Shown: positions 46,142 through 64,000, counted from the stretch's first letter. The stretch: DNA of 64,000 bases from Opitutia bacterium (GCA_003153035.1 PMBT01000026.1:296-64295), one strand, 5' to 3'. Notes: generated by a model from the sequence alone, not told the origin. A program made the numbers and translations.

Positions 46142-48343
46142 TCACCGCGAATCCGGATGGTCCGGCTTGAAACCGATGGCGTCGAGCGCGGGCTGGATCT
46201 CCGGGTTGGCCATGAATTCCTTCCACAGGAGGCCGGTGCGGTGGTTCTCGATCATGGCGACGATCTGCGCCTGGTTGAGCCCCATCCACACCTCTTCGTA
46301 CCAGTTCAGCGAAGGATTAAAGCTGTCATAGAATCCATAGATTCCCCACGTCTTGGCCCCGAGATCGCGGTAATAATGCTTCAGCGCGGCCATCGATTCC
46401 TCAGGCGTGTAGGGGAACGCCCCGAGCGCGGCCGAGATGCAGATGGTGCCGATGTCGTCGCGCGGGACGGGACGGCCGCCCCCGCAATTAATCCCCGCTG
46501 AGAGTCCCCAGCAATCGGGCCCGTAACCGGCGTGCCCGCGCGCGTTCTCCATGCAATAGGCGCGGTTGATAAGCGCAAGCGCGCGGTTGTTCTGGAAATA
46601 GTTCGTGTAGGCGTCGCGCCGGCCCCGCGGATCGAAGCCCAAGAAGGAGAACTGGGTGAAGAACAGTTCGCCGCCGGTGCCGAGGCCGACGTCGAGCTTG
46701 TGGCCATAGTAGCTGTTCCCGTTGGTATAGTGGTCGCCGGCCGTCGTTCGGCTCCAGCCCCGGCGGTAGCGGACCGCCGGCGCGGATTGTCCGGCCCACC
46801 CCGTGTGGTAGAGGCTGGCCGGCACCGCATGCGTCGGCGACGCAATCGCGAGCAGGTAGATGATCAGCGTCTCATTCCAGCCGACCAGCGGGTGGCTGAT
46901 ATGCCAGCCGTGGTCGGGCGACCAGTGCCAATAAAGAAAATCGCCCGCCGGCTCCTTGCGGAACCAGTTCCATTCGACGCCGCGCCAGCAGGCGGTGATC
47001 GTTTCGCGGATCGCCCGTTCGGCGGCGTTGTCGCGGTTGAAATACTGCCGGGCCGTCAGCAGGCCCTGCATGAGGAATGCCGTCTCCACCAGGTCGGCGC
47101 CATCGTCGTAGGATCCAAAGTAAGGGATGACCTTGCCGGTGCGCCCGTCGAGGAAATGAGGCCACGCGCCGTGGAACCGGTCGGCGGTCTGCAGGAAATG
47201 CACGATCTTCAGCAGGCGCCCAGCGCCCTGCTCGCGGGTGATGAAACCGCGCTCCGTCCCCGTGACCAGCGCCATGACGCCGAAACCCGTCGCGCCAAGC
47301 GCGCACAGATCGTCGTTGCCCGGCAGAAGTTCGATGGCCATGCCGGAATTGGGATGGCCCGCCTCCCAGTAGTAGCGGAAACAGCCTTCCTGCACCATGG
47401 TGAGCAACTCCTCGTCGTTGAACTCGCGAGTCGCGCCCGAGGCCGCGGGGGACAGGACCGACTCGCGGCCGGACTCGTCGATTGCACTGATCTTGTAGAA
47501 CGCCTGGCGGCCTGGTTGTCCTATGAAATCCGCGTAACGGTTCACCTCACCTTGCTGAATGCCGACGGGAGCGTACGTCCGGCCGTCCAATGAGCGGTAG
47601 ATCTGGTAGCGGAACGGCGGTTTCCCGGCCGGCCGCGCCCACGTCAGGTCGAAGTGGCGTTCGCCGGGCTTGACCGCGAGACCGTCCGGCGCGGCGGGCG
47701 CCGGCCCGCCCGCAACTTCGTCTGGCCCGACCTCCACGTCGTCAATGTAGAGCGTGTGTTCCCGGCCATCGTCGAGGCCCTGCTCGAAGATCAGGCCCGC
47801 CAGCTTGTGAAGGTCGAAGCGATTCTCAGCGGTCCCGCCATATTGCCCCTGAAAATCAGCCAGCCTGAAGCGCAACTGCACCCACCGGCCGGCCGGAAGC
47901 GCGCCCTGCCGGTCGAGCAGCGTGATGGTGCCCGCCCAGGCGTCCGTCATGTCCTTCAGGTTCAGTCGCGGCGACTCCTCGGGTGTCAGGCCCTCTTCCG
48001 AGAAACACCAGAAGGACAGGGTGTCGCCCCGGTAGTCGAAGCTCGGGCTGTAGTGTTCCGACGCCTTGAGCGTCATTTGCCAATCGCCACCTGGTGCGGA
48101 TTTCCATTTTAGCCGCAGCCCGTTCGGTGGTGAAATGAAGTGGTCGGTCTCAACCGGGAACTTGCCGTCGACTAGATCGAGTTTGCTGGGCGCAATGATT
48201 TTGCCATAGCTCCGGTAAAGTGATCCGTCGGCCAGGCTGTTATCGAAGACGACGTGGTGGAAATAAGTGGACTCGGCCAGGACATTGAGGCTGCCAAGCG
48301 ACAGCAGGACGGCGAGGCAGGCGGAACGGACTTTGATGTGCAT
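46142..48343 (-). CDS. GH144-type (DUF3131/'glucoamylase-family') candidate endo-beta-1,2-glucanase with N-terminal CBM-like and Fn3-like modules
   Basis: The signal peptide is [23 protein letters not shown]. The Fn3-like module is [24 protein letters not shown]...[14 protein letters not shown]. Catalytic-domain blocks are shared with the paralog at 55316-58111: [40 protein letters not shown] and [13 protein letters not shown]. Confidence 0.82.
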
Positions 48344-48629: not shown

Positions 48630-51600
48630 TCACAATTCCACAACGATCCCGTTCTTCTCCGTCCGCAGCTGCTCCGCCACTTGGGCGGCGGGGATGCGAA
48701 GCCCGCCGGCGCGGTACGGATTGGGATCGCGCCGCACGGAACCCGTCATCCGGACCCCGTTTACGATGACCCTGGCCGGCGAAAAGGTACCGACCTTCAC
48801 CCGGTATTGAATCTCCACCCGATGACCGCAGAGTGTCATGGTCGCGATCAAGCCGTCGAGGCTCTTCGGCATCACCGGATCAAACACCAGATCGCCGAAG
48901 GACTCCCTGATGCCGAGCAGGCATGTGCGGACATTGTGGAGGAACATGCCCGGTCCGCTCGAGTAAAGCCGCCAGCCGCCCCGCACCCCAACCTGCCCCG
49001 CCCGCAGCTCCGGCCACCGTGCAGTGGCCTCGTAACGGTCGGCAAAATCCGCGTCGGAACTGGAAAAATAGACGTTGCTTTGGCGCGGCTCGGCCTGCCG
49101 CACAACCTCCGCAAGCCCAACCGGGTTGACGACCTGCAAAGCGGTCCACAACCCCTCGGCTTCACCGACTTTGGCCAGCGCCTCGGCATAGCGCAGATGG
49201 GCGTGGACATATTGCAGCCCGATCTCCCGACCGACGTTGGCGGCGGTCTCAGCCCGCCGGAAAAGATGTGCGCTCCCGCCGTGGTACGTGGCTGGTTCGC
49301 TCATCAGCCGCACCCCGTCGGGGTACAGTAGCTCACGGGCGATGATCTCGAGGTGGCGGGCGGCTTCCGCCGGCGTGAAGAGCTCCGCCAGGATCGAACG
49401 GGTCATTGGCAGCAACCGGTAGCGGATGCCAGTGACGGCATCCGTCGGATGAAGCAGCGGCCGGGCACGGCCATCCGGTTCCACGACGACGAATCCCGCC
49501 ACAATTCCGTCCGGCATCAATCGCGCCGCAAAATCGCTCCGCATGCGTTGCAACCACGCGTCAAGCCGGTCCGCCCGTCCAGGCTGTCCGGCGCGCCGGC
49601 AGACTTCCGCCAGCTGCCGGAAAGTGTGAAACGCCAGTCCGACCGTCCAGGCGCTGATCATGCGGGTGCGCATCGTCGGGTCGGCGGGCTGCAGGGTGTC
49701 GTCCCAATCGCCATCACCGTAGTTGACCAGCGCCGTCCTGTCCACGAACCGCGACTCGACGTGTGCCATCACGCGATCGCAGTGGTCGAGAAGCGGTTCC
49801 TCCGGCCCGGTGGGTTCGAAACGCCGCGGATCGGTGTAGCCGATCGTCTGCTTCAGAAACTCCCGGTCGTTGCTCGCCTCCACGTAGTCGCACAACGCCT
49901 TGACCGGCCAAAAGCAGACATCGCCATGGCTGTGCGCCTGCTGGATGAAACGGAACGGTGGGAACATGAACCACTGGGGCCAGCTGCCATCGTGCGGGTA
50001 CTGCTGCGCGAACACCGTCTCCAGAACGCGGCGCACCACGTCATGGCGGCCCGCGGCCAGGAGCCACTCCACCGATCCCTGGCAGACATCGCGCACCCCC
50101 CAGGCCCCGCCGCCATACTGTTCGAGGCCATGCGGCGCGGAGAAATGGATGCTGGCATTGTGGGTGAACCATGGCAGCACCTCGTTAACACGCGCGATGC
50201 CCGCATCGTGGCCGCCGTGCAAGCGCACCGGTGCCGCCGGCGGCGCGGCCGGCCGGATTCCGGCCCCGTACTCACCTCGGGCCGCGGCAACCGCGGCCGC
50301 CAGCGCCGCCGGTCCGTCCGAAGTGCCGGTCAGGATCGCCCCGCACTGGCTGACCGCCCGGGAACGCAAAACCACATAGGGCCCGTTCCGGCAAATCCCG
50401 TCGGCATGCAGCAGTTCATCGCCGCCAATGACCGCCATCTCCCCGGTGTCCATCGCCGCCAGCGCGAAGCAGGTGCCCGGAAGATGCTCCGCCAGCAATC
50501 CGTCCCCTGCGGGCTCGCACCCCACCCAGCCCTCCGCCGCAAAGATCTCCGCCGAGCCGGCGCTATCGAACTCGTTCGAGCCGATCACCAGTTGGTGGGT
50601 GAGCAAAAACTCCCGCGGCGCCCCGGCGGTCACGCGCAGCTCGAGGAACGAGGCGGAGAGGCGTCGCGCGCACCAGACGCGCGCTTCGATGACGTCAGCG
50701 CCGAACTGGTAAATCCAGCGGACCTCGCCGGGACTCATGGCAAAAGCGGAAGGAATCCCGAGCTGCCGCCAGACCCCTTCATGGCGGATAAAAACGCGCT
50801 GGCCGCTGCCGCGGACAACATTCAGGGAGTTGCGGATGACCGGCAGAAAACGCGCCAGGCTCGGGTTGCCGAAATAGGCCTGGGCGGCAAAAATGCCGGC
50901 CGCATAGACGGTCAGGCCGAACTGGGCGTTATCAATCCAGGTTGCCTCGCCGGACCGAAGGAGGTGGCCGTGCGGGCGGGCGACGAGCGCCTCCTTGTCA
51001 CGGGTGACGACGTGAGTATCCTCGGCGCTGAAAAACGCCAGCGGGGCCCGGTCAGCGCCGCGCTCTTCGTGGCGGCGCGCACCCGGAAACCATGCCGACA
51101 AATCGGCCTCCGTGGGCCGGTCACCATGCAACCATTTTGCTGTGACGAACACCGACGGTTCCGCAGCCGCGGACGGAGCGCGCGGTGTCGCGCAGCCCCA
51201 GTCCACCGGGAGAACCTCCCTCAACCGGGCGAGATCGGACGGGGCGGACGCTTCTGGATGATCCTCGAGATACCGGGCGACGAAACTGATCTCGCCGGTG
51301 GCGCCAGGCGGCAGCTCGAGCGCACGGCTCTGCAGGCCGCCGAGCGCAAACTCGTATTGCAGGCGTTTCGACGGGAGCGATGCCATCCATGCGGCGGCGG
51401 GCTCGCCCGTGAGCCGGTGGTCGGCGCCAAAAAACTGCCACCCGTCGGTGCAGAACGCCGCCGCGCCCGTTGCACACGCGAGCGCCAGCCACGGATGGCG
51501 GCCGCCCGTCATCGCCTGGTTCTGGCGGGCCAGGACCGCCCAGCCGAGCGCGGCGTCGTCGACTGGCAGCAAGTCGATGTAGTGCGAGATATACGCCTCG

Positions 51601-52037
51601 TTGTTTCGGACGGCTCCTTCATCGGCGAGGCCGAGGTCCTGCGCCAGCAGCACATCAAGGCGGCGCACAACGGACCCGGTGTTACGCACGCGCACCCGCC
51701 AGGCCCAGGCCGCATGCTGCCCGTGCAACTGGAGCGTGGTGGTGCATTGCAGGCCGGCATCGGCCACCGAATTCCAGGCGGCCGCATCCACGCCATTGTG
51801 GGAGAAATCAAGCCCCGGGCCGGTCAGCGGGCACCAACCGGCAACGCCGGCGGCGCCGTGCCAGCGCAGGAGCAGACGGAACAAGCCGTCCTCCGCCGGG
51901 CCGGGCAGCAGCTGGTTGAGAAGCGTCGGGCCGTGGCGCAGAGCGAACACGGCGCCCGAAGGCAGCAGTTGCACGACGAGCGGCGAACGATTGTGCAGCT
52001 CCACCAATCCCAGATCAGCTATGGCCGGGATTTTCAT
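48630..52037 (-). CDS. GH94-type glycoside phosphorylase (candidate 1,2-beta-oligoglucan phosphorylase), cytoplasmic
   Basis: About 1135 aa with no signal peptide. The (alpha/alpha)6 catalytic region contains VNYGDGDWDDTLQP (GH94 catalytic Asp context) and HGLEQYGGGAWGVRDVCQG. I prefer ATG 52037 (MKIPAIADLG), because the track start at 52091 lies inside repeat copy C. Confidence 0.82.
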   Translation of the reverse strand: MKIPAIADLGLVELHNRSPLVVQLLPSGAVFALRHGPTLLNQLLPGPAEDGLFRLLLRWHGAAGVAGWCPLTGPGLDFSHNGVDAAAWNSVADAGLQCTTTLQLHGQHAAWAWRVRVRNTGSVVRRLDVLLAQDLGLADEGAVRNNEAYISHYIDLLPVDDAALGWAVLARQNQAMTGGRHPWLALACATGAAAFCTDGWQFFGADHRLTGEPAAAWMASLPSKRLQYEFALGGLQSRALELPPGATGEISFVARYLEDHPEASAPSDLARLREVLPVDWGCATPRAPSAAAEPSVFVTAKWLHGDRPTEADLSAWFPGARRHEERGADRAPLAFFSAEDTHVVTRDKEALVARPHGHLLRSGEATWIDNAQFGLTVYAAGIFAAQAYFGNPSLARFLPVIRNSLNVVRGSGQRVFIRHEGVWRQLGIPSAFAMSPGEVRWIYQFGADVIEARVWCARRLSASFLELRVTAGAPREFLLTHQLVIGSNEFDSAGSAEIFAAEGWVGCEPAGDGLLAEHLPGTCFALAAMDTGEMAVIGGDELLHADGICRNGPYVVLRSRAVSQCGAILTGTSDGPAALAAAVAAARGEYGAGIRPAAPPAAPVRLHGGHDAGIARVNEVLPWFTHNASIHFSAPHGLEQYGGGAWGVRDVCQGSVEWLLAAGRHDVVRRVLETVFAQQYPHDGSWPQWFMFPPFRFIQQAHSHGDVCFWPVKALCDYVEASNDREFLKQTIGYTDPRRFEPTGPEEPLLDHCDRVMAHVESRFVDRTALVNYGDGDWDDTLQPADPTMRTRMISAWTVGLAFHTFRQLAEVCRRAGQPGRADRLDAWLQRMRSDFAARLMPDGIVAGFVVVEPDGRARPLLHPTDAVTGIRYRLLPMTRSILAELFTPAEAARHLEIIARELLYPDGVRLMSEPATYHGGSAHLFRRAETAANVGREIGLQYVHAHLRYAEALAKVGEAEGLWTALQVVNPVGLAEVVRQAEPRQSNVYFSSSDADFADRYEATARWPELRAGQVGVRGGWRLYSSGPGMFLHNVRTCLLGIRESFGDLVFDPVMPKSLDGLIATMTLCGHRVEIQYRVKVGTFSPARVIVNGVRMTGSVRRDPNPYRAGGLRIPAAQVAEQLRTEKNGIVVEL

Positions 52038-52084
52038 TCGCAATGGGTCCGACACCCCGAAACTTGTAGCGGCTTGGTCAGGAA

Positions 52085-52210
52085 GCGGCACGGGTCTCCC
52101 GACCCGTGGGGATCGGAAACACAGGTCGGGAGACCCGTGCCACTAAACTGACGCTGAATGCAGCGGGACATGAAGTGTCTTGTTCAAATGCCCCGGAACT
52201 TACTCCGGGG
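52085..52210 (+). repeat. Composite double-hairpin repeat, copy C
   Basis: GCGGCACGGGTCTCCCGACCCGTGGGGATCGGAAACACAGGTCGGGAGACCCGTGCCAC-TAAACTGA...GGGACATGAAGTGTCTTGTTCAAATGCCCCGGAACTTACTCCGGGG. It lies between the TonB-dependent receptor stop (52448) and the GH94 start (52037). Confidence 0.85.
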
Positions 52211-52447: not shown

Positions 52448-55243
52448 TCAGAACTCGAATTTCGCAGTGAGGGTGAACTTCCGCGACGGGATGAAGTTAT
52501 AATCCATCGGCTGCGTCCCATTGTAGCTTTGGAACACGAGCGTCTTGTTTCCGAACAGGTTGTCCACGTTGAGCTGGACCCGCGCATGGAGCTTATGGCC
52601 CATCGTGTCGAACGCTCTTGAATAGCCGACAAGGAGCGATTCCGTCGTGTAGGCGGTCGTCCGGTTCACCTGGTCGATCTGGCGCGCGCCCGTTTCGGTC
52701 GCACCGAAACCGATATCGAAACCCTTGAAGGTGTCGTCCGTGAAGCTATACGTAGCGAAGGCATTCCACATGGACTTGACCACACCGCCGGCGAGGGTGG
52801 GAATCGCCCAAATCGCGTAGTTATGCTGGGCCGTTGCGAGATCAGAGGCCAGTTTCTGGCTCTGGGTGGAGCTCCCGGCGGCCGCTACCTGCCATTCCGC
52901 CAGATGTTGATTGAAATATTTGAGGCCATCCACTCCGTCGTCGGTCCGTTGTCCCTTGGGAGCGGCATAGTGCACTTGCAGACGGATGTTCTTGGTCGGA
53001 TTAGCGGTCATCTCGAACTCGACGCCCTTATACTCCACGTTGTAGATGGTGTTATATTGCATCTGGGCAGTGACACCATTTATCTGACCGGCCGGCCCGA
53101 TGTCTCTCGCCGTGCCGCCAGCCGCCAGGTAGTCATTCCAAATGGTCTGGAAGTCGGCGCTATCGCCACCGATGACATCCGTTGCGGTGTCCTTATACCA
53201 CGTGGCTGAGGCGTAATATTTGCCATCAGTCGTGGAGACACGAATGCCAGCGTTTTTGCCTTTGCCAAAGGACGCCCCGCGCAAATCGCCGAACAGGCTG
53301 GGGGCCAGGCCACCGGCGGCCGGCTGGTAGTTGTCGGAGAGATTCGCGAAAAGCCCGAGCCAGTCTGTCACGTAGCCAATGGCCCCGACGGAGTAGGTGT
53401 TGCCAGCTCCATTGCCGACGACCGGTACATTGCCGGTACCGCGCAGGCCGACCTTGGTGACGTCATAGGTGTCGCGCCGGATGCCGAGTGAGATGTTCAG
53501 GCGGTCGTCCCAGAGGCGGGTCTGCGAGAATGCGCCATAGTATTTGATGGTCTGCTTCGAGTTGAAGTCATACCAGTTGAACGGCATCGCCTTGTAGATG
53601 ACACCGGCGGGCACGTTGAAAGCCGCCTGCGGTTTGTCCCAATACATCCGTCCCCAGACCATGTCCTGGGTCCAGTTGTTGGCGGTCCAGTTGACTTGGT
53701 TCGGGTCGTTAGCAATCCAATCGGCATTGAGCTGACGGGCATCATACTCGGTCACCTGTTCGCCAGCGGAGGCGCTAAGCACCTGCTTCAGGGGGACATT
53801 CCACAATTCCGTGTCGAAATGATACGAGAACTGTCCGCGGACCTCGTTCACCCAATGATCCTGAACCTGTTTATCGAGGAAGAAATCCGAATAGAGCTTG
53901 CCGTAGTTGGGATTCGTCTGGCCGCTGGGCAGCTGCTTGTTGAGGTCGTACTGCGCGTTGGTCGCGCCTTCGAAGTTGATCGAGTACTGGTCGTCGACAT
54001 AGCGGTAACCCGAAAGCTCCAAATCCATGTTTTTATTGATCCGTTGGTCGTAGGTCAGCGTCATGTTGAGAGCCTGGGGTTTTAGATAGCCGTCGCTCGG
54101 GGATACCGTGAATTCCCTGCTTGGCAGCGCCATGATGGCTGTGCCACCGGTCGGCGCGTAGTTGAAGGAAGAGGGTCTCAGGTAGGCGCCCCACGCAATG
54201 TTGTTCGTACCCATGGACCGCACGCCAGCGCCCCAGTTCACCACGGCGCCAGATCCGGCGACCAAGACATTATAGGGATTCAGGCCCCAGTCCGACATCC
54301 CTGTCACGCCGGGTGCGCCGGGAGTGGTTTGGGGGTTGGCCCCTTGGTTGGGGATGGCAGCTCCCCAAGTGGCGGCGTTGGTTGTTCCGTTCCAGAGAGA
54401 GGCATTGTCCTGATAGGTCGCGCCGTAGATCGCCTTCTTTTCCTTCCAGCCTTCAATCTCAAAGCGCAGATGTCCATTGTCGTGGAAGAACTTCCAGTCA
54501 CCGGCAAGATCGGCGCCCAGTTTCTTGTGATAGTCGCCGTCTCTCCAGCCCTTCTCGTTCGCAATTACAGCGTTCACCCGGAGGGCGAGATCGCCCACGG
54601 ACTGGTTTGCGTCGATCGTGCCGCGATAGCCGCCGTAACTGTCGAGACCGAGGTTGAAGGTGTTGAAGTTCTTGTCGAACCGCGCCGTCTTGGTGTAGCT
54701 GCTCACCGCGCCACCGATGTCGCCGATGCCGAACAGAATGGAATTCGGACCTTGGTCGAACTCGATGCGCTCGATATTGTAGGTGTCCATCACCGTGTAG
54801 ATCGGGAAGTAGTTCTTCGTCGGGGGATTCCCGCCTTGCACATTTGCGCCACCGCGGGTGCTGATCGACCAGTAGTTGAACACTCCGCCGCCCGAGCCGC
54901 CCGACATACCACTTCGATCTGAGGCGGTAACAGTGTTGAGCGACCATTTCAAAACGTCATTCACATTGGTGAGCGACAAGTCGTCGAGGAAGGCCCCGGT
55001 TAGCGATGACATTGGGGCCGGGGTCACCCGGATGGGTGCGGCCTGCCGGCCGCCGGCGAGTGAATCGGTGGCGATGTAGCCGTTGTCCTTGTCGGTGTTG
55101 ACGGTGAACGTGTCCATCACGACCGTCTTTTCAGGCTCCGGGGCCGTCGGCGGCGGGGTGGAAGTCTGTGCCAATAGCGGGGCCTGCAGCCCCAGTGCCA
55201 GCGCGAACGCGGGCACGATGGTATGAATCATCCTGGTTTTCAT
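52448..55243 (-). CDS. TonB-dependent outer-membrane receptor (no adjacent SusD)
   Basis: The signal peptide is MKTRMIHTIVPAFALALGLQAPLLAQ. The plug motif is YNIERIEFDQGPNSILFGIGDIGG. A long beta-barrel ends in the terminal ...FTLTAKFEF (C-terminal Phe). Confidence 0.9.
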   Translation of the reverse strand: MKTRMIHTIVPAFALALGLQAPLLAQTSTPPPTAPEPEKTVVMDTFTVNTDKDNGYIATDSLAGGRQAAPIRVTPAPMSSLTGAFLDDLSLTNVNDVLKWSLNTVTASDRSGMSGGSGGGVFNYWSISTRGGANVQGGNPPTKNYFPIYTVMDTYNIERIEFDQGPNSILFGIGDIGGAVSSYTKTARFDKNFNTFNLGLDSYGGYRGTIDANQSVGDLALRVNAVIANEKGWRDGDYHKKLGADLAGDWKFFHDNGHLRFEIEGWKEKKAIYGATYQDNASLWNGTTNAATWGAAIPNQGANPQTTPGAPGVTGMSDWGLNPYNVLVAGSGAVVNWGAGVRSMGTNNIAWGAYLRPSSFNYAPTGGTAIMALPSREFTVSPSDGYLKPQALNMTLTYDQRINKNMDLELSGYRYVDDQYSINFEGATNAQYDLNKQLPSGQTNPNYGKLYSDFFLDKQVQDHWVNEVRGQFSYHFDTELWNVPLKQVLSASAGEQVTEYDARQLNADWIANDPNQVNWTANNWTQDMVWGRMYWDKPQAAFNVPAGVIYKAMPFNWYDFNSKQTIKYYGAFSQTRLWDDRLNISLGIRRDTYDVTKVGLRGTGNVPVVGNGAGNTYSVGAIGYVTDWLGLFANLSDNYQPAAGGLAPSLFGDLRGASFGKGKNAGIRVSTTDGKYYASATWYKDTATDVIGGDSADFQTIWNDYLAAGGTARDIGPAGQINGVTAQMQYNTIYNVEYKGVEFEMTANPTKNIRLQVHYAAPKGQRTDDGVDGLKYFNQHLAEWQVAAAGSSTQSQKLASDLATAQHNYAIWAIPTLAGGVVKSMWNAFATYSFTDDTFKGFDIGFGATETGARQIDQVNRTTAYTTESLLVGYSRAFDTMGHKLHARVQLNVDNLFGNKTLVFQSYNGTQPMDYNFIPSRKFTLTAKFEF

Positions 55244-55315: not shown

Positions 55316-58111
55316 CTACTCGAGGCGCAGCGTGCCGAGCCCAAAGCGTTCGTCGCGGCGGTCGTAATAGCGCCAGTTCAACTTCAATGATGGCTCCCAT
55401 TCGAAGGAGCCCTCTGAGACCACCGCGGGGGAAACGCCAATCACAAGGCCGGAGCGGGGCGTGAGCCCCAAGTCCGACCAGGGGATGTCGGCCTCGACTT
55501 CATAGCCCTGGTCCGTGCGCCGGACCTCCCCCTGCACCGGGCGGTTGTGGAACCACTCCGTCACCGCGCCGTTGGCCCGGAAGCTGAACTGGCTGTCATC
55601 CGCACCAGACCAGACGAGACCATCGTTTTTCGGGTCGACGAACAATTCCACGCCGTTGCGCGGCGAGGGGGTTGTCAGCTTGGGAAGTTCATCCATCACC
55701 TCGGCGTGGAAGTGCAGCGCGGCCTGGTCCCAGGTGAAGGCGAAGCGCATCGCGAGCGCCGGGTCGCCCGGCCGGATGTCAGCCACGGAATCCTTGAATT
55801 CCAGGCCGGCCACCCGGGTCCACCTCCACTGGTCGCGCGGCGCGGTGGCGGACACGGCGACTGCCAGGCGCTCGGGCGGCACCAATTCCGGCCCGGCCAA
55901 TTGTCTCCGGTACAGGATCGAGTTGTTGCGACCGAACGCTGCTTCGACGAACTCCGGGATCGCCGCGCGGCCGGCCTGAACCAGCGGATCTTGCTGGAAC
56001 CATTGCCGGATGCAATCGGGCACAAGGAGGTTGGCCACAGTGATGAGCAGCGCGGCTCGGTCCTCCGCTGATGTCTTTTCGATCCACTCCGCCGGCGGCG
56101 GCGCCCTGTCTAAATGTGCAACCGTCGTCGCGGGGAATTCCGCCAGGAGCAACGCAGTCGTTAGCACGTCGTAAGGAAAAGTCTTCGCTGCGCCGGAGTC
56201 CTCTCTGAGTCGCGCGTAGGCAAACTGTGCCGCCGATGCTCCCGAGATGATCGATCGCTCGTCGAGCCAGAGCCCGGGTAGCAATTGGTCACGGACGTTT
56301 ACCGGCGCGAGCACGTAAACCGGTCCAAAAGGCTGCGGCGTGCGTTCCAGCCCGGTCCAAGCCGACGGCGGGCGGGCGCCTGCGGCCACCTGGAAAAACG
56401 TCGTCAGCCGATCCACGGCGCCTAGCTGGTCCGATACGGCCGGAATCGTCTTCCAGTCAATCGCGGTCAGGCGGCGCGTCGCTTCCGCCGCCAGACTTGG
56501 GATCGCCTGGCGCAGCGTGGCCAGGCCTGCGGCATACTCCGCCACCGCGACCCCGTCCTGCGCCGCCGGCGCCGTGCGCAACAATGCCCCGGCCCGGGCC
56601 GCCGCCTCCGCGCTAGAGATAAAACCGAGCGTCTCGGCCGCGATGATCGATGACAGCTCCAATCCCACCGTAACGCCCGGCGTCGCTCCAAGCGATTTCC
56701 ACGCCCGGGCCGCCAGCTCGCGCAGTTCATCGTGGCCGGGTCCGGTCAGATCGCGGCTCGTCGAGACGAACCCGGCGCGGGCCAGCGCCCGCTGGACCTC
56801 AGGCGCCCCCATGAACAACGACCAGACGAAGCCGGTCCGGACGTTTTCCGCCTGTAGCAGCGTGATTCCCAGATCGATGCCGATGACATCCGGATTGACC
56901 CACCCTGTCTCGGGGTTGAAGGCATCCACAAAACCGTAGCGTTTCCAGATGCGATCGCCGTAGGCGGTGCGCATGTATTGGAGCGCCGTCAGAGTCTCGC
57001 CAGGGGCAAAGGGCAACGAACCCGCCGGCGCGCATGGCACGATCGTGCCGTCGAGCGCGTTGAAATCAGTGGTGCGCGGCGGCCCCCCCCAGGCCTTGTA
57101 GCCGGTTGCGGAATCGGAGGCGGTGAGGCCCCACAGTTTTTCGCCCCAATGGGGAAATTCCGACCGCAGATCCATGCAGAATTTTCGCTGCGCCAGCGTG
57201 GCCAGGGTGGAGTTCAGGAAATAATCCGCATATGCATCCCGCAGGCCGCGAAAATCGCAGTAGGCCTGGGCGAATTGATGCACGAACAACTGCGCCCCCT
57301 GAATGTAATGGTAACCGCCGTAGCTGCCGAGCGGTGCGCGGGCCCAGGCGCTCCAGAGTTCCGGCTCGATCGGCCGCTCGGGCGCGCCCAGCCCCAGCAG
57401 GGTGAGCAGCTTCAGCTCCGAGTACCGATCCCAGCGGAAGCGCGAGAAACCCGTCTCGTCGAACCAGCCCATCGCGAAGGTCCTCCCGCCGTTGAGAAAC
57501 CAGTGCCAGTCCACCTCGCGATAGAGTTGGTCGACCAGCCTGGTGATCTCGGGGTCGTGGAAGTACTCGCGCGCCGCGATGGCGCCGGCGAGAAACAACC
57601 CGGTGTCGATGGTCGAGATCTCGCACTTCCACGCGCGCGCCCCGGTATCCATCTCCATGAAGTGGTAGAAGAAGCCGTGCTGGCGCCGAGCCTCGGTGGC
57701 GAGGAAGCGCAGCAGGGTCTGCACGCGCCGCACTGCCGTCGAGCGCTCCATCCAGCCCCGCTCGGTGCCCACCGCCCAGGCGCTGAGGGCGAAACCGGTC
57801 GCCGCGATGCTGGCCTTGCCTTCGGTCGGCGAGCCGTCGGCCCGCGCCCGGTCGCGCACCAGACCAGTACGGGGATCCGCCTGCTCCGAGAAATAGCGAA
57901 AGGACGCCATCTCCAGCTCGTTGAGAAACGCATCATCGGCAGCCGGCAGCTTCACCACCGCCCGCGCCCCCGGCCGTTCGCCGGCCCCGCCCTGCATCAC
58001 CGTTTCTTCGCGCGGCGTTTCCGCCCGCCCTCGCCCGCCTGCAAGCAAGAGGACGAGCGCGCCCAGAAAGAGCCGACGTGGTGACGCCGCGGGGATGCGA
58101 AACGGAGCCAT
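55316..58111 (-). CDS. GH144-type (DUF3131) candidate beta-1,2-glucanase, with an unassigned central region and a C-terminal CBM9-like module
   Basis: The N-terminus has an RR motif (SPRRLFLGALVLLLAG, Tat-like). Catalytic blocks are ASFRYFSEQADPRTGL, IAATGFALSA, HGFFYHF, LWGLTASD and RYGFVDAFNPETGW. The C-terminal module is ALHFHAEVMDE...GVELFVDPKNDG...DSQFSF...GYEVEADIPWSDLGL (CBM9/DOMON-like pattern). Confidence 0.82.
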   Translation of the reverse strand: MAPFRIPAASPRRLFLGALVLLLAGGRGRAETPREETVMQGGAGERPGARAVVKLPAADDAFLNELEMASFRYFSEQADPRTGLVRDRARADGSPTEGKASIAATGFALSAWAVGTERGWMERSTAVRRVQTLLRFLATEARRQHGFFYHFMEMDTGARAWKCEISTIDTGLFLAGAIAAREYFHDPEITRLVDQLYREVDWHWFLNGGRTFAMGWFDETGFSRFRWDRYSELKLLTLLGLGAPERPIEPELWSAWARAPLGSYGGYHYIQGAQLFVHQFAQAYCDFRGLRDAYADYFLNSTLATLAQRKFCMDLRSEFPHWGEKLWGLTASDSATGYKAWGGPPRTTDFNALDGTIVPCAPAGSLPFAPGETLTALQYMRTAYGDRIWKRYGFVDAFNPETGWVNPDVIGIDLGITLLQAENVRTGFVWSLFMGAPEVQRALARAGFVSTSRDLTGPGHDELRELAARAWKSLGATPGVTVGLELSSIIAAETLGFISSAEAAARAGALLRTAPAAQDGVAVAEYAAGLATLRQAIPSLAAEATRRLTAIDWKTIPAVSDQLGAVDRLTTFFQVAAGARPPSAWTGLERTPQPFGPVYVLAPVNVRDQLLPGLWLDERSIISGASAAQFAYARLREDSGAAKTFPYDVLTTALLLAEFPATTVAHLDRAPPPAEWIEKTSAEDRAALLITVANLLVPDCIRQWFQQDPLVQAGRAAIPEFVEAAFGRNNSILYRRQLAGPELVPPERLAVAVSATAPRDQWRWTRVAGLEFKDSVADIRPGDPALAMRFAFTWDQAALHFHAEVMDELPKLTTPSPRNGVELFVDPKNDGLVWSGADDSQFSFRANGAVTEWFHNRPVQGEVRRTDQGYEVEADIPWSDLGLTPRSGLVIGVSPAVVSEGSFEWEPSLKLNWRYYDRRDERFGLGTLRLE

Positions 58112-58563: not shown

Positions 58564-59637
58564 CTAGACTGGCTGGGTCGACTCGCGGATCACCAGGGCC
58601 GCCGGCATCTCATGGAGGACCGGCCGCCGGGCCTTGCCCGGCGCGCCCGCCGCCTCGACCACCAACCCGACCGCCCGCTCCGCCATGTCCGCCAACGGCT
58701 GACGGATGGTGGTCAGCGCCGGCCGGCAGGCCGTCGCCCACATCCCGTCATCAAACCCGACCACCGAGACATCCTCCGGGCAGCGCAGTCCCGCCAGGTT
58801 CGCCTCATGGATCGCGCCAAAGGCGATTTCGTCATTGGCACAGCAGAGCCCCGTGGGCCTGTCCCCGGAACCGAGGAAACGTGCGAAGCCCTCCCGTCCG
58901 GTCTCGGCACTGAACGGACCTTCGTAAATCCACTCGGCGCGCGGCGTCACCCCTGCTTTTTCCAGCGCATCGAGATATCCCTGCCTGCGCTCGTGGACAT
59001 CGCGGGAGGCGCTGGGGCCCAGCAGCAGCCCGATCCGCCGATGCCCGAGCTGCAGCAACAAGCTCGCCGCCGATTGGGCCCCGGCAAAATTGTTCACCCC
59101 CACCACCGGCACCCCAAAGTCGCTCACAGCGGTCTCAGGCGGCAGCACGGACTTGGCGACCACAAACGGCCGCCGGTAGCCGTGCAATTCCTGCAGATCT
59201 TTGAGCAGCAATGGCTCGGCCAGGTAGATGATGCCGGAGGAATCCATGCTCAGGTGCTGCATGGCCTCGCGAAAGCTCGCGCCGGGCTTCCGGTTCAGGG
59301 TGCAGATTTGCACGCCCCACCCGCGCGCCGCCGCCGCGTGCAGCGTGCCCGCCAGAAACCGGCCGTAAAACTCGGAAAAGAAAATGTTTTCATCCAACGG
59401 CACCACGACCGTCAGGGTGGAATTGATCCCCCGGCGCAGCATGCGGGCCCCGGGATTGGGGGAGAAATTCTGCTGCTCCGCCAGATCGAGGATGACTTTG
59501 CGGGTTTCCGCACTCACCAGATGAGCCGTTTCCGGTCGCAGCGCCCGCGAGACGGTCGAGGGGGACACGCCGAGACGCTCTGCGATCTGCACAATGCCCA
59601 CCCTGGTTGGCCGCGAGGAGGAGGATCGGATGGGCAT
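58564..59637 (-). CDS. LacI-family transcriptional regulator
   Basis: Trimmed to ATG 59637: MPIRSSSSRPTRVGIVQIAERLGVSPSTVSRALR (LacI HTH). A periplasmic-binding-protein-like sugar-binding core follows (VVPLDENIFFSEF..., VVGFDDG). Confidence 0.9.
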   Translation of the reverse strand: MPIRSSSSRPTRVGIVQIAERLGVSPSTVSRALRPETAHLVSAETRKVILDLAEQQNFSPNPGARMLRRGINSTLTVVVPLDENIFFSEFYGRFLAGTLHAAAARGWGVQICTLNRKPGASFREAMQHLSMDSSGIIYLAEPLLLKDLQELHGYRRPFVVAKSVLPPETAVSDFGVPVVGVNNFAGAQSAASLLLQLGHRRIGLLLGPSASRDVHERRQGYLDALEKAGVTPRAEWIYEGPFSAETGREGFARFLGSGDRPTGLCCANDEIAFGAIHEANLAGLRCPEDVSVVGFDDGMWATACRPALTTIRQPLADMAERAVGLVVEAAGAPGKARRPVLHEMPAALVIRESTQPV

Positions 59638-59741
59638 GGGGTGTTGAAGTCGGTTCACATTCTGAAGGGCCGGGAGCGGCGGCGGCAAGCATTCCCACCT
59701 GACAGCCCACTCCGGATGGTTCTAGTGATTCAATTTGGGAT

Positions 59742-59755
59742 TGCAAACATTTGCA
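59742..59755. promoter_or_regulatory. Candidate LacI-family operator O3: TGCAAACATTTGCA
   Basis: Palindromic half-sites TGCAAA/TTTGCA. It is centred in the divergent region, about 105 nt from the lacI-family start and about 98 nt from the MFS start. Confidence 0.65.
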
Positions 59756-59852
59756 TTCGGATTTCTATCCGCGCGCAGCCACCCCGAGGTCGACATTATC
59801 AGGCCATAACCCCAGCATTTCACCGGCCGATTGCCCCGGCCCCGGCTTAATC

Positions 59853-61289
59853 ATGAATCCACAGAAGCACCATCTTACCGCCCCGGCGGACAGAATTCCG
59901 GTGCCTCAGAAGATCGCCTACGGCCTGGGGGCCGTGGTCACGATCGTCGCGGTGAACTCAGTCCAGCAGCTAAGCGGACTCGTCTATGTGGTCGGGTTGG
60001 GAATCAGCGTGGTCTGGATCAACTGGGCCCAGGCGTTCCCGCGGTTGTGGGATGCCGTGGTGGATCCGTTCCTGGGCAACCTGTCCGACAACTCACGTTC
60101 ACGATTCGGCCGGCGGATCCCCTTTCTCGTGATCGGGGGAATCCTGATCGGAATCGCGTTCTGGCTGCTCTGGGCGGTGCCGCGGGACTGGAGCAAATCC
60201 GGGATGTTTGCCTACTTCGTCGTGGTCTCGCTCTTTTTCTACACAGTCATCCCCATTTACGCGATTCCTCACGGGGCGCTGGGACTTGAGATGACCGAGG
60301 ACTATCACGAGAAGACCAGCCTATTCGCCTACGCCAGCTTCGTCGGCAATGTGGGTGCCTTCACGCTTCCGTGGATTTACTACCTGGCCAACCGGCCGAT
60401 CTTCGGAGGCGACGCCGTGAAAGGGATCAAATGGGTGTGTCTCGGGATGAGTGTCCTGCTCACGGCGTGCGCGCTCACCTGCGCCCTGGTCTGCAAAGAG
60501 GCCAAGCTGAAGCAGGCGAAGTCGCAGGAGAAGGTGCCGATCTGGGAGAGCTTCAAGACCACGTATCGGAACCCGACCTTCCTGCGGCTCGTGCTGGTGT
60601 TTGTGCTGCTGATCGTCGGATTCCAGCTCGTCATGGGATTCAACAACTACATCTCCATCTTCTACCTTTTCGGGGGCAACAAGGACGCGGCTTCCACCCT
60701 TATGGGCGAAAATGGCACCCTCTGGGCCGCGATCGGGCTCGCGGGCGTCTTTCCGATGACGTGGTTGTCCAAGCGGTATGGCAAGCGGGCCACGGTCATG
60801 GTCGCGCTCGGGATCATGATCGTGGGGAACCTGTCGAAGATCCTGTGCTACAGCCGGACGTATCCCTGGCTGACGTTCATCCCGACCGTGGGGCTGTCGC
60901 TCGGCATGGTGTTCTCTTTCACGCTCGTCAACTCGATGATCGCCGACATCTGCGACGAAGACGAATTCGCGACGGGCATCAGAAGGGAGGGTATTTATTT
61001 CGCCGTCTACAACTGGTGGTGGAAGGTGGCGGTCTCGATCGCCACGGTCGTCAGCGGCTATGTGCTCCGATTCACGGGCTTCCAGGAGGGCCTGCCCACC
61101 CAGACCGAGGCCACGCTCTTCTGGATCAGATTCTGGGAAATCGGGCTGCCCCCGTGTCTGTGCCTGATCAGCCTGATCTTGCTGGTCAAATACCCGCTGA
61201 CTGAAGAGCGGGCCTACCAGATCAAGGGACTGCTGGCCGCCAAGCGCGCGCAGCGCCTGGCGACCGCTGCGGTGGAACCCGCCTCCTAG
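59853..61289 (+). CDS. Glycoside-pentoside-hexuronide (GPH):cation symporter family MFS transporter
   Basis: Trimmed to ATG 59853 (MNPQKHHLTAP...). WDAVVDPFLGNLSDNSRSRFGRRIPFLV is the GPH/MelB-type loop 2-3 signature. About 12 TM segments. Confidence 0.88.
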   Translation: MNPQKHHLTAPADRIPVPQKIAYGLGAVVTIVAVNSVQQLSGLVYVVGLGISVVWINWAQAFPRLWDAVVDPFLGNLSDNSRSRFGRRIPFLVIGGILIGIAFWLLWAVPRDWSKSGMFAYFVVVSLFFYTVIPIYAIPHGALGLEMTEDYHEKTSLFAYASFVGNVGAFTLPWIYYLANRPIFGGDAVKGIKWVCLGMSVLLTACALTCALVCKEAKLKQAKSQEKVPIWESFKTTYRNPTFLRLVLVFVLLIVGFQLVMGFNNYISIFYLFGGNKDAASTLMGENGTLWAAIGLAGVFPMTWLSKRYGKRATVMVALGIMIVGNLSKILCYSRTYPWLTFIPTVGLSLGMVFSFTLVNSMIADICDEDEFATGIRREGIYFAVYNWWWKVAVSIATVVSGYVLRFTGFQEGLPTQTEATLFWIRFWEIGLPPCLCLISLILLVKYPLTEERAYQIKGLLAAKRAQRLATAAVEPAS

Positions 61290-61357
61290 CCCGGATCTTC
61301 CGCAGGGCTGATGGCACAACCAAACCGTTTTACAGAAGTAACGGAGGAACCTGGAAG

Positions 61358-64000
61358 ATGGACCTTTCGCCACACGGATCGAATCACGGGGGCGCGCGGG
61401 TGCTTTTCGTCATCGCCGGGCTGATGCTGCCCGGGCTCCTTTGGTCACAATCCCGCCTGCTCGACGACTTTGAGACCCTGGCCGGATGGCAGGCCGTTCA
61501 TTCGGAGGGCGCCACGATGAACCTGGCCACCGCCGAGGGGAAAACCGGCAAAGCCATGGTCATGGAGTTCGATCTGAGCGGGGCGTACGGCTACGTCAGC
61601 GCGCGGAAGGATTTCCCGATCGATCTGCCCGAGAACTACCAGTTCACCTTTGATCTGCGGGCGGATGCCCCGGTTAATAACTTCGAGTTTAAGCTGATCG
61701 ACGCGCAGGAGAACACCTGGTTGGCCAGGAAACTGGATGTCACCTATCCGACGGAGTGGACCACGCAGCACATCCGCCGGCGCCAGGTGACCTTCGGATG
61801 GGGCCCGGCGGGAGGCGGCGAAATCCGGCACGTCAAGGCGCTCGTGTTCGTGGTGGCCTCCGGCACCGGGGGGAAGGGCAAGGTCTTCTTCGACAACCTC
61901 CGCATCGAAGCCGTCGATGAGCGCGCCAACCTCACCGCCCGCGCCCGGGTCGACGCTTCTTCGACGCAACCCGGGGGTGAACCGGCATGGGATGATAAGG
62001 AAGCGCGTCTGGTGCATTGGAGGAGCGCGGGAAACAACTCCCCGGAATGGCTCGCCGTCGACTTCGGCTACCAACGGGAGCTGGGCGGCCTGGTGATCGA
62101 CTGGCAGGGGGAGGATTATGCTTCGGCCTATGAAGTGCTCACGTCAGCCGATGGAAGGGACTGGCGGCCCTCCTCGTCGGTGACGCAGGGCAACGGCGGC
62201 CGCGATTACGTCTATCTGCCCGAACAGGAGGGCCGGTTTCTCAAGCTCGTGATGAAGAAAAGCGCGCACGGCCGGGGTTTCGCGATCGCCCAACTCGTGG
62301 TCAAAGGCCCCGAGTTCGGCGCCAGCGCCAACGGCTTTTTCAGCGCCGTGGCCCGCGACCAACGGCGCGGACTATATCCGAAATACCTGCGGCCGGAGCA
62401 GAGCTTCTGGACCGTTGTTGGCAGTCCCCGCGATGACCGCAAGGCGCTGATTAACGAGGAGGGCGCCATCGAGATCGATCAAACCCGCTTCACTATCGAA
62501 CCGTTTCTTTTCGTCGACGACCAGCTCGTGACCTGGAGCGATGTCACGCCGCGCCAATCCCTGGAGAAGGACTACCTCCCGATTCCGTCGGTCGAGTGGC
62601 AACACCGGAATCTCAAGCTGACTATCACCGCTTTCGCCGCAGGAGCCGCCGGACCGGACAGCCGGTTGCTCGCGACCTACCGGATCGAGAATTCAGGCGG
62701 GCCAGTCCGCGGAAAACTGTTCCTGGCGGTCCGTCCCTTTCAAGTAAATCCGCCCTGGCAGGGATTGCTGCACGCCGGTGGGTGGGCGCGCATCGATCAT
62801 GTGCAACTTGAAAACGGCGTGCTGACGGTTGACGACCGGAAGATTATCCCGATCGACGCCCCGTCGGGTTTTGGGGCGACGCCATTTGAGCACGGAGAGA
62901 TCACCGAATACTTGCAGCAGGGCCGGCTCCCAACCGGCAACCGGGTTCAGGACACCCAGGGATTTGGCTCCGGCGCGCTGGAGTACGACTTCGATCTCCC
63001 GGGCGCATCCTCTATCGAATACCACCTGGCGGTGCCCTTCCACAGCTGGAGCGGGAGCCCCACGCCGAATATGGACCGGACCGGCGCGGCGAATTACGCC
63101 AGCGGTGCCCATGCGGCGACCCGGCAGATGTGGGAGTCGATGCTCGACCGCTTTGACGTCCGGCTGCCCGCCTCCGCCCAGCCCATCATCAACACGATCA
63201 AATCGAATCTGGCGTACATCTTCATCAACCAAGTCGGGCCCCGCATTCAGCCGGGGGCGCGCAATTACAACCGGGCCTGGATTCGCGACGGCTCGCTGAC
63301 CTCCACCGCCCTGCTGGAGCTGGGCATCAAGGACGAGGTGAAGGCGTATGCCGACTGGTATTCCCAATTCCAATTCCCGAGCGGCAAGATTCCCTGTGTG
63401 GTCGATTCGCGCGGCGCCGATCCGACCGTGGAAAATGACAGCCACGGAGAGATGATCTATCTGATCATGCAGGTTTTCCGTTTCACGCATGACCGGACCT
63501 GGCTGCGTTCCAAGTGGGATCTGGTGGTGAAGACGGTGCGCTACATCCAGGGCCTTCGCGCCGAGCGGAAAACCGCGGTCTACCAGACGGGAACCCCGCA
63601 GCAGCGGGCCTGCTACGGGCTGGTCCCCGAGTCCATCAGCCATGAGGGATACTCGGCCCAGCCGATGCACTCCTACTGGGATGATTTCTTCATTCTCCGC
63701 GGGTTGAAGGATGCGACCGCCATGGCCGGCATCCTCGGCGAAACGGAAAAGCAGGCCGAGTTTGCCGCCGAGCGTGACGATTTCACAAAGGATCTCTACG
63801 CCTCGATGCGCCGGGCGATGGCGAACCGGCACATTGACTACATTCCCGGTTGCGTGGAACTGGGGGATCTTGACGTGGCCTCGACGACGATCGGCATCAC
63901 GCCGGTGAACGAGCTGGGAAACCTCCCGGAGCCTGAGCTCCACCACACCTTCGACCGGTATTTCGACTACTTCACGAAGCGCCAGCACAACACCATCGAT
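61358..64000 (+). CDS. Secreted multidomain protein: N-terminal beta-sandwich, F5/8 type C (discoidin)-like module and (alpha/alpha)6-barrel-like region; partial, runs off window end
   Basis: My own translation from ATG 61358 is open for 881 codons to the window end. It starts MDLSPHGSNHGGARVLFVIAGLMLPGLLWSQS (signal). The discoidin-like block is EWLAVDFGYQRELGGLVIDWQGEDYASAYEVLTSADGRDWRP...FLKLVMKK. The later motif ARNYNRAWIRDGSLTSTALLELG recalls the W-x-RD motif of GH15-like barrels. It is absent from the ORF track because it has no stop. The long antisense ORF 62693-63988 is a shadow of it. Confidence 0.8.
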   Translation, partial: MDLSPHGSNHGGARVLFVIAGLMLPGLLWSQSRLLDDFETLAGWQAVHSEGATMNLATAEGKTGKAMVMEFDLSGAYGYVSARKDFPIDLPENYQFTFDLRADAPVNNFEFKLIDAQENTWLARKLDVTYPTEWTTQHIRRRQVTFGWGPAGGGEIRHVKALVFVVASGTGGKGKVFFDNLRIEAVDERANLTARARVDASSTQPGGEPAWDDKEARLVHWRSAGNNSPEWLAVDFGYQRELGGLVIDWQGEDYASAYEVLTSADGRDWRPSSSVTQGNGGRDYVYLPEQEGRFLKLVMKKSAHGRGFAIAQLVVKGPEFGASANGFFSAVARDQRRGLYPKYLRPEQSFWTVVGSPRDDRKALINEEGAIEIDQTRFTIEPFLFVDDQLVTWSDVTPRQSLEKDYLPIPSVEWQHRNLKLTITAFAAGAAGPDSRLLATYRIENSGGPVRGKLFLAVRPFQVNPPWQGLLHAGGWARIDHVQLENGVLTVDDRKIIPIDAPSGFGATPFEHGEITEYLQQGRLPTGNRVQDTQGFGSGALEYDFDLPGASSIEYHLAVPFHSWSGSPTPNMDRTGAANYASGAHAATRQMWESMLDRFDVRLPASAQPIINTIKSNLAYIFINQVGPRIQPGARNYNRAWIRDGSLTSTALLELGIKDEVKAYADWYSQFQFPSGKIPCVVDSRGADPTVENDSHGEMIYLIMQVFRFTHDRTWLRSKWDLVVKTVRYIQGLRAERKTAVYQTGTPQQRACYGLVPESISHEGYSAQPMHSYWDDFFILRGLKDATAMAGILGETEKQAEFAAERDDFTKDLYASMRRAMANRHIDYIPGCVELGDLDVASTTIGITPVNELGNLPEPELHHTFDRYFDYFTKRQHNTID

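Follow-up and report, generated by a model that had tools for sequence, protein, structure and literature searches.

We analyzed a 64,000-nucleotide (nt) stretch of DNA from an Opitutia bacterium (GCA_003153035.1, PMBT01000026.1:296-64295), hereafter the window, and focused on the long open reading frame (ORF) that begins at position 61358 on the + strand and runs off the window's end (the target gene). We propose, with a probability of about 0.72, that the target gene encodes an exported, inverting, multidomain glycoside hydrolase (GH) of an unclassified GH15-like family that is dedicated to substrates derived from beta-1,2-glucan. Judged from its sequences, this family appears to be a large, unnamed, distant sister of GH15, and it probably carries out a step in beta-1,2-glucan digestion to which no enzyme has been assigned so far.

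The target ORF starts with an ATG at 61358 and stays open for 881 codons, without a stop, up to the end of the window, which spans positions 296 to 64295 of its contig (C78:296-64295) in a 4.0-Mb, 64% GC, 86%-complete assembly. An earlier note on this DNA (the original prediction) had singled out this ORF and called for the full-length gene from the adjoining sequence. The frame could be read on along the contig to a stop at contig position 64883 (window-equivalent 64588, 588 nt past the window end), giving a full protein of 1076 amino acids (P0002) with many homologues, and the ORF is therefore real. The start site is well supported by the Shine-Dalgarno sequence GGAGGA and by the spacing to the upstream gene, which encodes a GPH/MFS_2 sugar symporter (MFS_2) and whose stop at 61289 leaves a gap of 68 nt. 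No terminator-like site was found when the + strand of this gap was searched, and the symporter gene and the target gene probably form one transcript, which agrees with the earlier placement of the target just 3' of the MFS gene and co-transcribed with it. A 431-amino-acid ORF lies wholly inside the target gene in the antisense direction (62693-63988, - strand); this ORF is most probably no gene but a high-GC shadow frame. The features of the target gene and its predicted protein are as follows.

61343 to 61348, + strand: Shine-Dalgarno sequence GGAGGA, read directly, 9 nt 5' of the target ATG
61358 to 64000, + strand: in-window part of the target gene (residues 1-881 of 1076), frame read on the contig
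61358 to 61450, + strand: signal peptide, residues 1-31, judged by eye (basic n-region to R14, hydrophobic V15-W29, then SQS/R)
61454 to 61912, + strand: CBM11-like N-terminal beta-sandwich, residues 33-185, from PDB matches and an all-beta AlphaFold2 (AF2) model
61946 to 62305, + strand: F5/8 type C domain (discoidin, CBM32), residues 197-316, from PF00754
62327 to 63052, + strand: beta-supersandwich, residues 324-565, from AF2 secondary structure and whole-protein Foldseek coverage
63077 to 63145, + strand: long linker helix from sandwich to barrel, residues 574-596, from AF2; hhalign pairs it with the GH94 linker
63170 to 64000, + strand: (alpha/alpha)6 barrel, residues 605-958 (in the window to residue 881), from AF2, Foldseek and hhalign
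63266 to 63289, + strand: Y637-N-R-A-W641-I-R643-D644 in the alpha1->alpha2 loop, matched by hhalign to GH15 YRYCWLRD
63617 to 63685, + strand: family-specific alpha5->alpha6 loop, G754-LVPESISHEGYSAQPMHSYWD-D776, carrying E763 (predicted general acid) and the invariant D775

The original prediction had described a signal peptide, an N-terminal beta-sandwich, an F5/8 type C-like module and a helical region, and all four are present. No lipobox cysteine was read in the leader sequence and no type IX secretion system (T9SS) tail is present; the AF2 model shows residues 12-30 as a helix of low confidence. An N-terminal leader is common among the homologues, where it is followed by AQxRLLDDFE. Because the leader is of the Sec type, there is no lipobox or T9SS tail and the gene stands beside a periplasm-to-cytoplasm importer, the protein is probably periplasmic. 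The CBM11-like domain matched PDB entries 1v0a/2lro (E 5e-4, or 3.8e-5 with a profile; residues 33-183), and the Pfam model CBM_11 (PF03425) matched just 4 of 41 members at E <= 0.1. The one domain recognized by Pfam was F5/8 type C: PF00754 covered residues 200-309 with 52.2 bits against a cut-off of 28.2, which places this module in CBM32; its nearest solved relatives are the discoidin modules of Paenibacillus glucanase/chitosanase, 2rva/4zz5 (E 2e-6).

The remainder of the protein resembles a six-hairpin glycosidase. The AF2 model of the whole protein, built on 41 homologues, had a mean predicted local distance difference test score (pLDDT) of 86.7 and a predicted template modeling score (pTM) of 0.84, and a model of residues 565-1076 (the domain model), based on 68 sequences excised from genome loci, reached 91.7 and 0.92, respectively. 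The beta-supersandwich has its counterpart in the N domain of GH15, GH65 and GH94 and was covered by Foldseek matches to GH15 dextran dextrinase, GH94 phosphorylases and GH116; profile comparison by hhalign gave no sequence-profile match for it. The helical region had been read earlier as (alpha/alpha)6-like, and this was borne out both by the twelve helices of the AF2 barrel and by Foldseek matches that were almost all to six-hairpin glycosidases. Past the window end lie helices alpha10-alpha12, the predicted base E926, GDMPHTW (939-945) and a C-terminal beta-sandwich (959-1076).

As the original prediction had held, the target could not be placed in a named GH family. The Pfam models for GH15 (PF00723) and GH78 (PF17389) gave 15.7 and 16.2 bits, below their cut-offs of 22 and 24.5, and the NCBIfam GH15 model TIGR01577 gave 29.5 bits, below 820.7; none of the GH15 models PF00723, TIGR01577, TIGR01535 and NF041084 matched above its curated cut-off. 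A PDB sequence search with the catalytic-domain profile (A3) returned nothing for the barrel at E < 0.1, and PDB matches to the protein and to the whole-length profiles (A1, A2) were confined to the CBM32 and CBM11 modules. Across the 41 aligned members, weak matches were frequent: TIGR01577 in all 41 (best E, 1e-10), PF17389 in 38 (best E, 9e-8), the model of the archaeal GH15 trehalase TreH1 in 30, PF00723 in 29 and GDE_C in 12. The GH94 models PF17167/PF06165 matched none of the 41 at E <= 0.1. A true GH15 gene was sought in the same genome and none was found, the sole PF00723 signal being the target gene.

For profile comparison with hhalign, we used small alignments of true GH15, GH78, GH94, GH144 and GH3 proteins from genomes and loci. 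The barrel (residues 600-960) scored 95.3% with GH15 (E 2e-8, 281 columns), 82.6% with GH78, 65% with GH94 and 0.2% with GH144. Over residues 320-1076, GH94 came first (96%; E 4e-9), followed by GH15 (94%), GH78 (86.1%) and GH144 (0.3%); the GH94 match extended over 416 columns, that is, the linker, the barrel and part of the C-terminal domain. The negative control, GH3 against the catalytic-half profile A3, gave 0.5%. Because of these profile results for the barrel and for residues 320-1076, we place the target, on sequence evidence, as a separate lineage in the GH15/GH65/GH94/GH78 six-hairpin assemblage, with a barrel that appears nearest to GH15 and a layout like that of GH94. Thus, the W-x-RD likeness to GH15 noted in the original prediction reflects real homology of the barrel (seen in the hhalign match and in the TIGR01577 signal in every aligned member), and it needs refining in that the linker-barrel-C-terminal layout is equally close to GH94. 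Membership of clan GH-S was ruled out by hhalign scores of 0.1-0.3% with GH144.

In the structure comparison, sequence identity was low (10-12% for the whole model and 10-14% overall), and matches were almost all to six-hairpin GHs. The top Foldseek match of the whole model was the GH15 dextran dextrinase 9ju0 (E 5e-17), and GH94 phosphorylases (about 1e-14), GH116 and the glucodextranase 1ug9 also matched. With the domain model, GH78 rhamnosidases came first (5e-10; TM score, about 0.6), then GH95, GH125, GH15, GH63, GH94 and GH133.

The target shares with GH15 of bacteria and archaea (clan GH-L: glucoamylase, glucodextranase 1ug9/1ulv, isomaltose glucohydrolase 5z3a, archaeal trehalases and dextran dextrinase 9ju0) the motif Y-x3-W-x-R-D in the alpha1->alpha2 loop and, at the level of the alignment, a Glu where the alpha11->alpha12 loop has its general base, after which comes G-[ND]-x-P-[QH]-x-[FW]. 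In the AF2 model, the barrel follows a beta-sandwich N domain as it does in GH15, consistent with the Foldseek matches to 9ju0, 1ug9 and 5z3a. In contrast to GH15, the target is only about 15% identical, falls below the Pfam/NCBIfam cut-offs, adds a C-terminal beta-sandwich and the N-terminal CBM11-like and CBM32 modules, and stands in a beta-1,2-glucan, not an alpha-glucan, gene context. With GH94 (clan GH-Q: cellobiose/chitobiose phosphorylases and the 1,2-beta-oligoglucan phosphorylase, abbreviated SOGP, encoded at 48630-52091 in the window), it shares the four-part layout (Foldseek 8ho8, 1v7v, 8bou), the R-D motif in the alpha1->alpha2 loop and the metabolic pathway. Unlike GH94, the target has a Glu at the GH15 base position and is exported rather than cytoplasmic; because of the export signal and the retained base Glu, E926, we predict a hydrolase and not a phosphorylase. 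When the barrel and the C-terminal sandwich were searched together with Foldseek, the GH78 alpha-L-rhamnosidases (8iwd, 3cih, 3w5n, 6i60) came out on top (E 5e-10; TM score, 0.54-0.62). They are six-hairpin inverting enzymes, as the target is predicted to be, but their hhalign score (83%) was lower than that of GH15, and the target gene has no link to rhamnoside-related genes. Finally, GH144 and its clan GH-S (GH144, GH162, GH189, GH192-194; PMC12102758) are (alpha/alpha)6 inverting enzymes, as predicted for the target, and occur in the same loci, although their profile relationship to the target is undetectable; the SGL-clan groups gathered by iterated PSI-BLAST (PMC12102758) do not include the target. 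The target and GH144 presumably act on the same polysaccharide.

Conservation was counted across 77 members with 34-85% identity to the query. The original prediction had quoted two motifs, and both were found, NYNRAWIRDGSLTSTALLELG at residues 636-656 and LVPESISHEGYS at residues 755-766. The polar residues that never or almost never vary are R635, Y637, W641, R643, D644, E692, D694, H762, E763, D775, D837, D839, E889, R891, E926, D940 and H943. By the helix boundaries of the model, nearly all of them lie on one face of the barrel, in the alpha1->2, 3->4, 5->6, 7->8, 9->10 and 11->12 loops. R643 and D644 are kept in all 77 members, Y637 in 76 and W641 in 75. These four make up the -1-subsite motif of GH15, Y-x3-W-x-R-D, and the Pfam GH15 match begins there. 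In GH15, the -1 glucose is bound through its O4 and O6 by the Arg and Asp and has the Tyr and Trp as its hydrophobic platform; the acid belongs to a W-E-[ED] motif, and the alpha11->alpha12 loop supplies the base (PMC12446779). In the hhalign alignment, E926 (HWAEIV; kept in 76/77) pairs with the first Glu of the GH15 base motif S-E-[EQ], and the target's IGDMPHTW pairs with GH15 LGNFPQAF.

The general acid is harder to place. GH15 and GH94 share an acid loop, alpha5->alpha6, and the alignment of the target there is of low confidence. The W-E-E acid motif of GH15 is absent from the target, which has HE763GY instead, within a 12-residue insertion, GLVPESISHEGY, in this loop; hhalign sets the GH15 acid motif just ahead of the insertion. 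E763 is kept in 76 of the 77 members, and D775 is invariant, as is the pair W774-D775 (77/77); E763 and this pair are the candidates for the acid site. The loop had a pLDDT below 50 in the full-length model and of about 81 in the domain model. We considered E758 as a catalytic residue and ruled it out, as it is kept in only 61/77 members and is Pro or Ala in 14. Since E763 shows no such replacement pattern, being kept in 76/77, it is the better candidate for the general acid, as far as conservation can tell. Thus, the acidic-residue motif LVPESISHEGYS of the original prediction does hold a conserved acid, which is E763 and not E758; E926, the second residue predicted to be catalytic, falls outside the window, past its end.

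The genomic context of the family ties it to beta-1,2-glucan. One search returned more than 3249 homologues, and clustering at 50% identity gave 4758 clusters with E <= 1e-3, 1054 of them with E <= 1e-30. A scan of one genome per species, covering 185,579 species, found at least 597 matching stretches, at least 590 of which encode a relative. For the best 80 of these at least 597 stretches, we searched all ORFs, with flanks of 10 kb, with the proteins encoded in the window as queries. Of these 80 loci, 64 had GH144 and/or GH94 no more than 10 kb away; among the 39 whose flanks were complete, 38 did (GH144 in 30 of the 39, GH94 in 29 and both in 21). The surveyed loci came from Verrucomicrobiota, Ignavibacteriota, Bacteroidota, KSB1, Kryptoniota, Calditrichota, Gemmatimonadota, Planctomycetota, Binatia and Proteobacteria (at least 10 phyla). 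The link to beta-1,2-glucan, which the original prediction had drawn from the neighbors at one locus, is therefore far stronger than a single locus could make it. A neighborhood like that of the window was also seen in Opitutus sp. ER46, in a metagenome scaffold from ENA and in metagenome-assembled genomes of KSB1, and the gene order MFS_2 then target recurs in Opitutaceae loci (L003, L005, L008, L009, L012 and L013).

It is important to note that the target gene is an accessory, not an obligatory, part of GH144 loci. Among 61 Verrucomicrobiota genomes, 10 carried GH144 and only 2 of these carried an orthologue of the target, in both cases on the same contig as GH144. Further, the wider superfamily is not confined to beta-1,2-glucan loci because distant paralogues with two discoidin domains (L096:6806-11173, + strand, and L097:8905-12087, - strand; E about 1e-53 to the catalytic profile), from Verrucomicrobiota genomes G029 and G059, sit among housekeeping genes (HisRS, GlnRS-type, DnaK, GroEL, RNase E) with no GH144 nearby; these surroundings give no hint of a substrate.

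In the mechanism that we propose, the enzyme would carry out single-displacement, anomer-inverting hydrolysis, with E763 in the alpha5->alpha6 loop as the general acid and E926 in the alpha11->alpha12 loop as the general base. R643 and D644 would hold O4/O6 of the glucosyl residue at the non-reducing end, and the action would therefore be exo. The substrates would be imported beta-1,2-glucan-derived oligosaccharides in the periplasm, where the enzyme would act beside the GH144 endo-glucanases. The MFS_2 importer, co-transcribed with it, and the GH94 phosphorylase in the cytoplasm would follow, and control would be of the LacI type.

Several points weigh against this proposal. The family is known from sequences, models and gene context alone, and at about 15% identity, homology to GH15 fixes neither anomeric nor linkage specificity. 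The linker-barrel-C-terminal layout scores as well against GH94, a family of beta-glucoside phosphorylases (96%), and the top Foldseek matches of the domain model are GH78 rhamnosidases. The localization comes from a leader read by eye. Moreover, the assignment of E763 as the acid draws on conservation and loop topology, and neither of the hhalign alignments, to GH15 or to GH94, can be relied on where it crosses the 12-residue insertion.

Within the proposed role, the bond that is cleaved can be read in more than one way. We tentatively put foremost an inverting alpha-1,6-glucosidase that opens alpha-1,6-cyclized beta-1,2-glucans or trims alpha-1,6-linked glucose from the oligosaccharide at which GH144 and GH3 stop. 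Xanthomonas, Ralstonia and Rhodobacter have such cyclized glucans as their family IV periplasmic glucans, which are linked to virulence. The barrel is nearest to GH15, whose enzymes act on alpha-glucosidic bonds (for instance, glucoamylase, glucodextranase, isomaltose glucohydrolase and dextran dextrinase; PMC12446779), and the target retains both the -1-subsite motif and the base. Two preprints from the group working on these glucans report that, from an alpha-1,6-cyclized hexadecaose, CpSGL (GH144) and BtBGL (GH3) together release 11 glucose and leave a "non-degradable glucopentaose", so an alpha-1,6-cleaving partner is missing; the pathway has no enzyme for this limit-glucopentaose step, and an accessory distribution (2 of 10 GH144-bearing Verrucomicrobiota genomes) would suit one. 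However, 15% identity is too low to transfer specificity, the similarity to GH94 and GH78 is comparable, and an intact ring is out of reach for an exo pocket with O4/O6 binding, such that endo-cleavage and trimming would have to come first. That these bacteria meet alpha-1,6-cyclized glucans at all is an assumption. Also possible, and ranked after the alpha-1,6-glucosidase, is a secreted hydrolytic cousin of the GH94 beta-1,2-oligoglucan phosphorylase, that is, an inverting exo-beta-1,2-glucan hydrolase that supplies glucose or sophorose to the MFS_2 importer. It would account for the hhalign match of residues 320-1076 to SOGP-type GH94, for the whole-protein Foldseek matches to GH94 (TM score, 0.5-0.55 on the Foldseek-matched structure) and for the operon with a GPH symporter in Opitutaceae, and a Glu in place of phosphate as activator of the nucleophile would make a hydrolase of a phosphorylase scaffold. 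Yet the Pfam GH94 models match none of the 41 aligned members, the catalytic Asp of the GH94 GDWND motif is not conserved (the aligned position is Y753/G754), GH94 falls below GH15 and GH78 when the barrel is compared alone by hhalign, and the activity would be partly redundant in loci that have two GH144 genes and often a GH3.

We consider it unlikely that the family is directed at branched or decorated glucans, removing beta-1,6 side glucoses from linear periplasmic glucans or cleaving beside residues substituted with succinyl, acetyl or phosphoglycerol groups. Esterase fusions among the seven longest representatives (GDSL in P0170 and P0116 and a C-terminal DLH/carboxylesterase alpha/beta-hydrolase in P0233) suggest that some family members meet acylated glucans, and GDPD and GDSL genes occur in some loci (L003, L005 and L006). 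A fusion to GH144 was seen in none of these seven representatives. Against this, a search of the 80 genome loci at E < 1e-10 gave no homologues of GDPD and GDSL, which makes the link to esterases an occasional one, and the active-site residues hold no pointer to a charged substituent. More doubtful still is a role outside hydrolysis, either as a noncatalytic glycan-binding or scaffold protein or as a periplasmic phosphorylase or transglycosylase. Two CBM-like modules and the absence of the canonical GH15 WEE acid motif would fit such a role, and dextran dextrinase, a GH15 homologue, is a transglucosylase (PMC12446779). A noncatalytic protein would not be expected from the conservation, with about 17 residues invariant across the 77 members, mostly in loops of the catalytic face and including the carboxylates E763 and E926. 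Phosphorylases are normally cytoplasmic, whereas the target has a leader peptide, and the locus already has a cytoplasmic GH94.

Beta-1,2-glucans, which comprise cyclic glucans and osmoregulated periplasmic glucans, serve as factors in symbiosis and virulence, and the pathway for their degradation has been assembled only since 2014 (GH94, GH3, GH144, GH162, GH35 and GH192-194). A literature search found no paper describing the target family and none coupling beta-1,2-glucan with discoidin, and for the catalytic part (about 750 residues) we found no Pfam model and no solved structure; members carry just the NCBI name "discoidin domain-containing protein". The target family is likely a new GH family; its superfamily and the type of locus that holds it are both known. 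Characterization of the target would very probably establish a new CAZy family and complete the pathway, and it could possibly yield a tool enzyme for alpha-1,6-cyclized beta-1,2-glucans. If the target does cleave alpha-1,6 bonds, it would represent a new GH15-like GH family for an alpha-glucosidic bond embedded in beta-1,2-glucan and would explain how soil and sediment bacteria use the "non-degradable" limit pentasaccharide.

The surveyed loci varied in organization. In an uncultured Ignavibacterium, the order is TonB-dependent receptor, a 1095-amino-acid protein, outer-membrane beta-barrel protein, GH144, target family, GH35 (GlmA-like), GH144 with a T9SS tail, and solute-binding protein. 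The 1095-amino-acid protein (L047:4189-7476, + strand) has no Pfam match and, adjoining the TonB-dependent receptor and the outer-membrane beta-barrel protein, may be a SusD-like or surface glycan-binding partner. The beta-1,2-glucosyltransferase (GH35) of I. album was characterized from the same type of cluster (PMC8861115), and Fig. S1 of that paper draws as gray arrows the genes "for which prediction of functions is difficult"; by analogy with the related Ignavibacterium locus, we infer that the target family may be one of them. In seven loci from Competibacteraceae and Gammaproteobacteria (L025, L035, L037, L038, L040, L044 and L052), a GH94 gene lies directly 3' of the target homologue and the search to 10 kb found no GH144, a variant organization; at another Competibacteraceae locus (L030), neither GH144 nor GH94 was found within 10 kb. 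GDPD genes lie within two beta-1,2-glucan loci (L003:18625-19572 and L005:7572-8453) and are candidates for the removal of phosphoglycerol from cyclic glucans.

In the window itself, the genes surrounding the target are as follows.

38757 to 40907, - strand: GH3
46142 to 48343, - strand: GH144
48630 to 52091, - strand: GH94 of the SOGP type (1,2-beta-oligoglucan phosphorylase)
52448 to 55243, - strand: TonB-dependent receptor
55316 to 58111, - strand: GH144
58564 to 59688, - strand: LacI-family regulator (Pfam LacI and Peripla_BP_3)
59751 to 61289, + strand: GPH/MFS_2 sugar symporter (PF13347, 223 bits), directly 5' of the target

Between the divergent lacI-family and MFS_2 genes, we read a palindrome, TGCAAA-CA-TTTGCA, at about 59743-59756, which is a putative operator. 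The palindrome falls inside the MFS_2 ORF as called from the TTG at 59751, so the true start of the symporter probably lies downstream of this codon; the MFS_2 Pfam match starts at residue 58.

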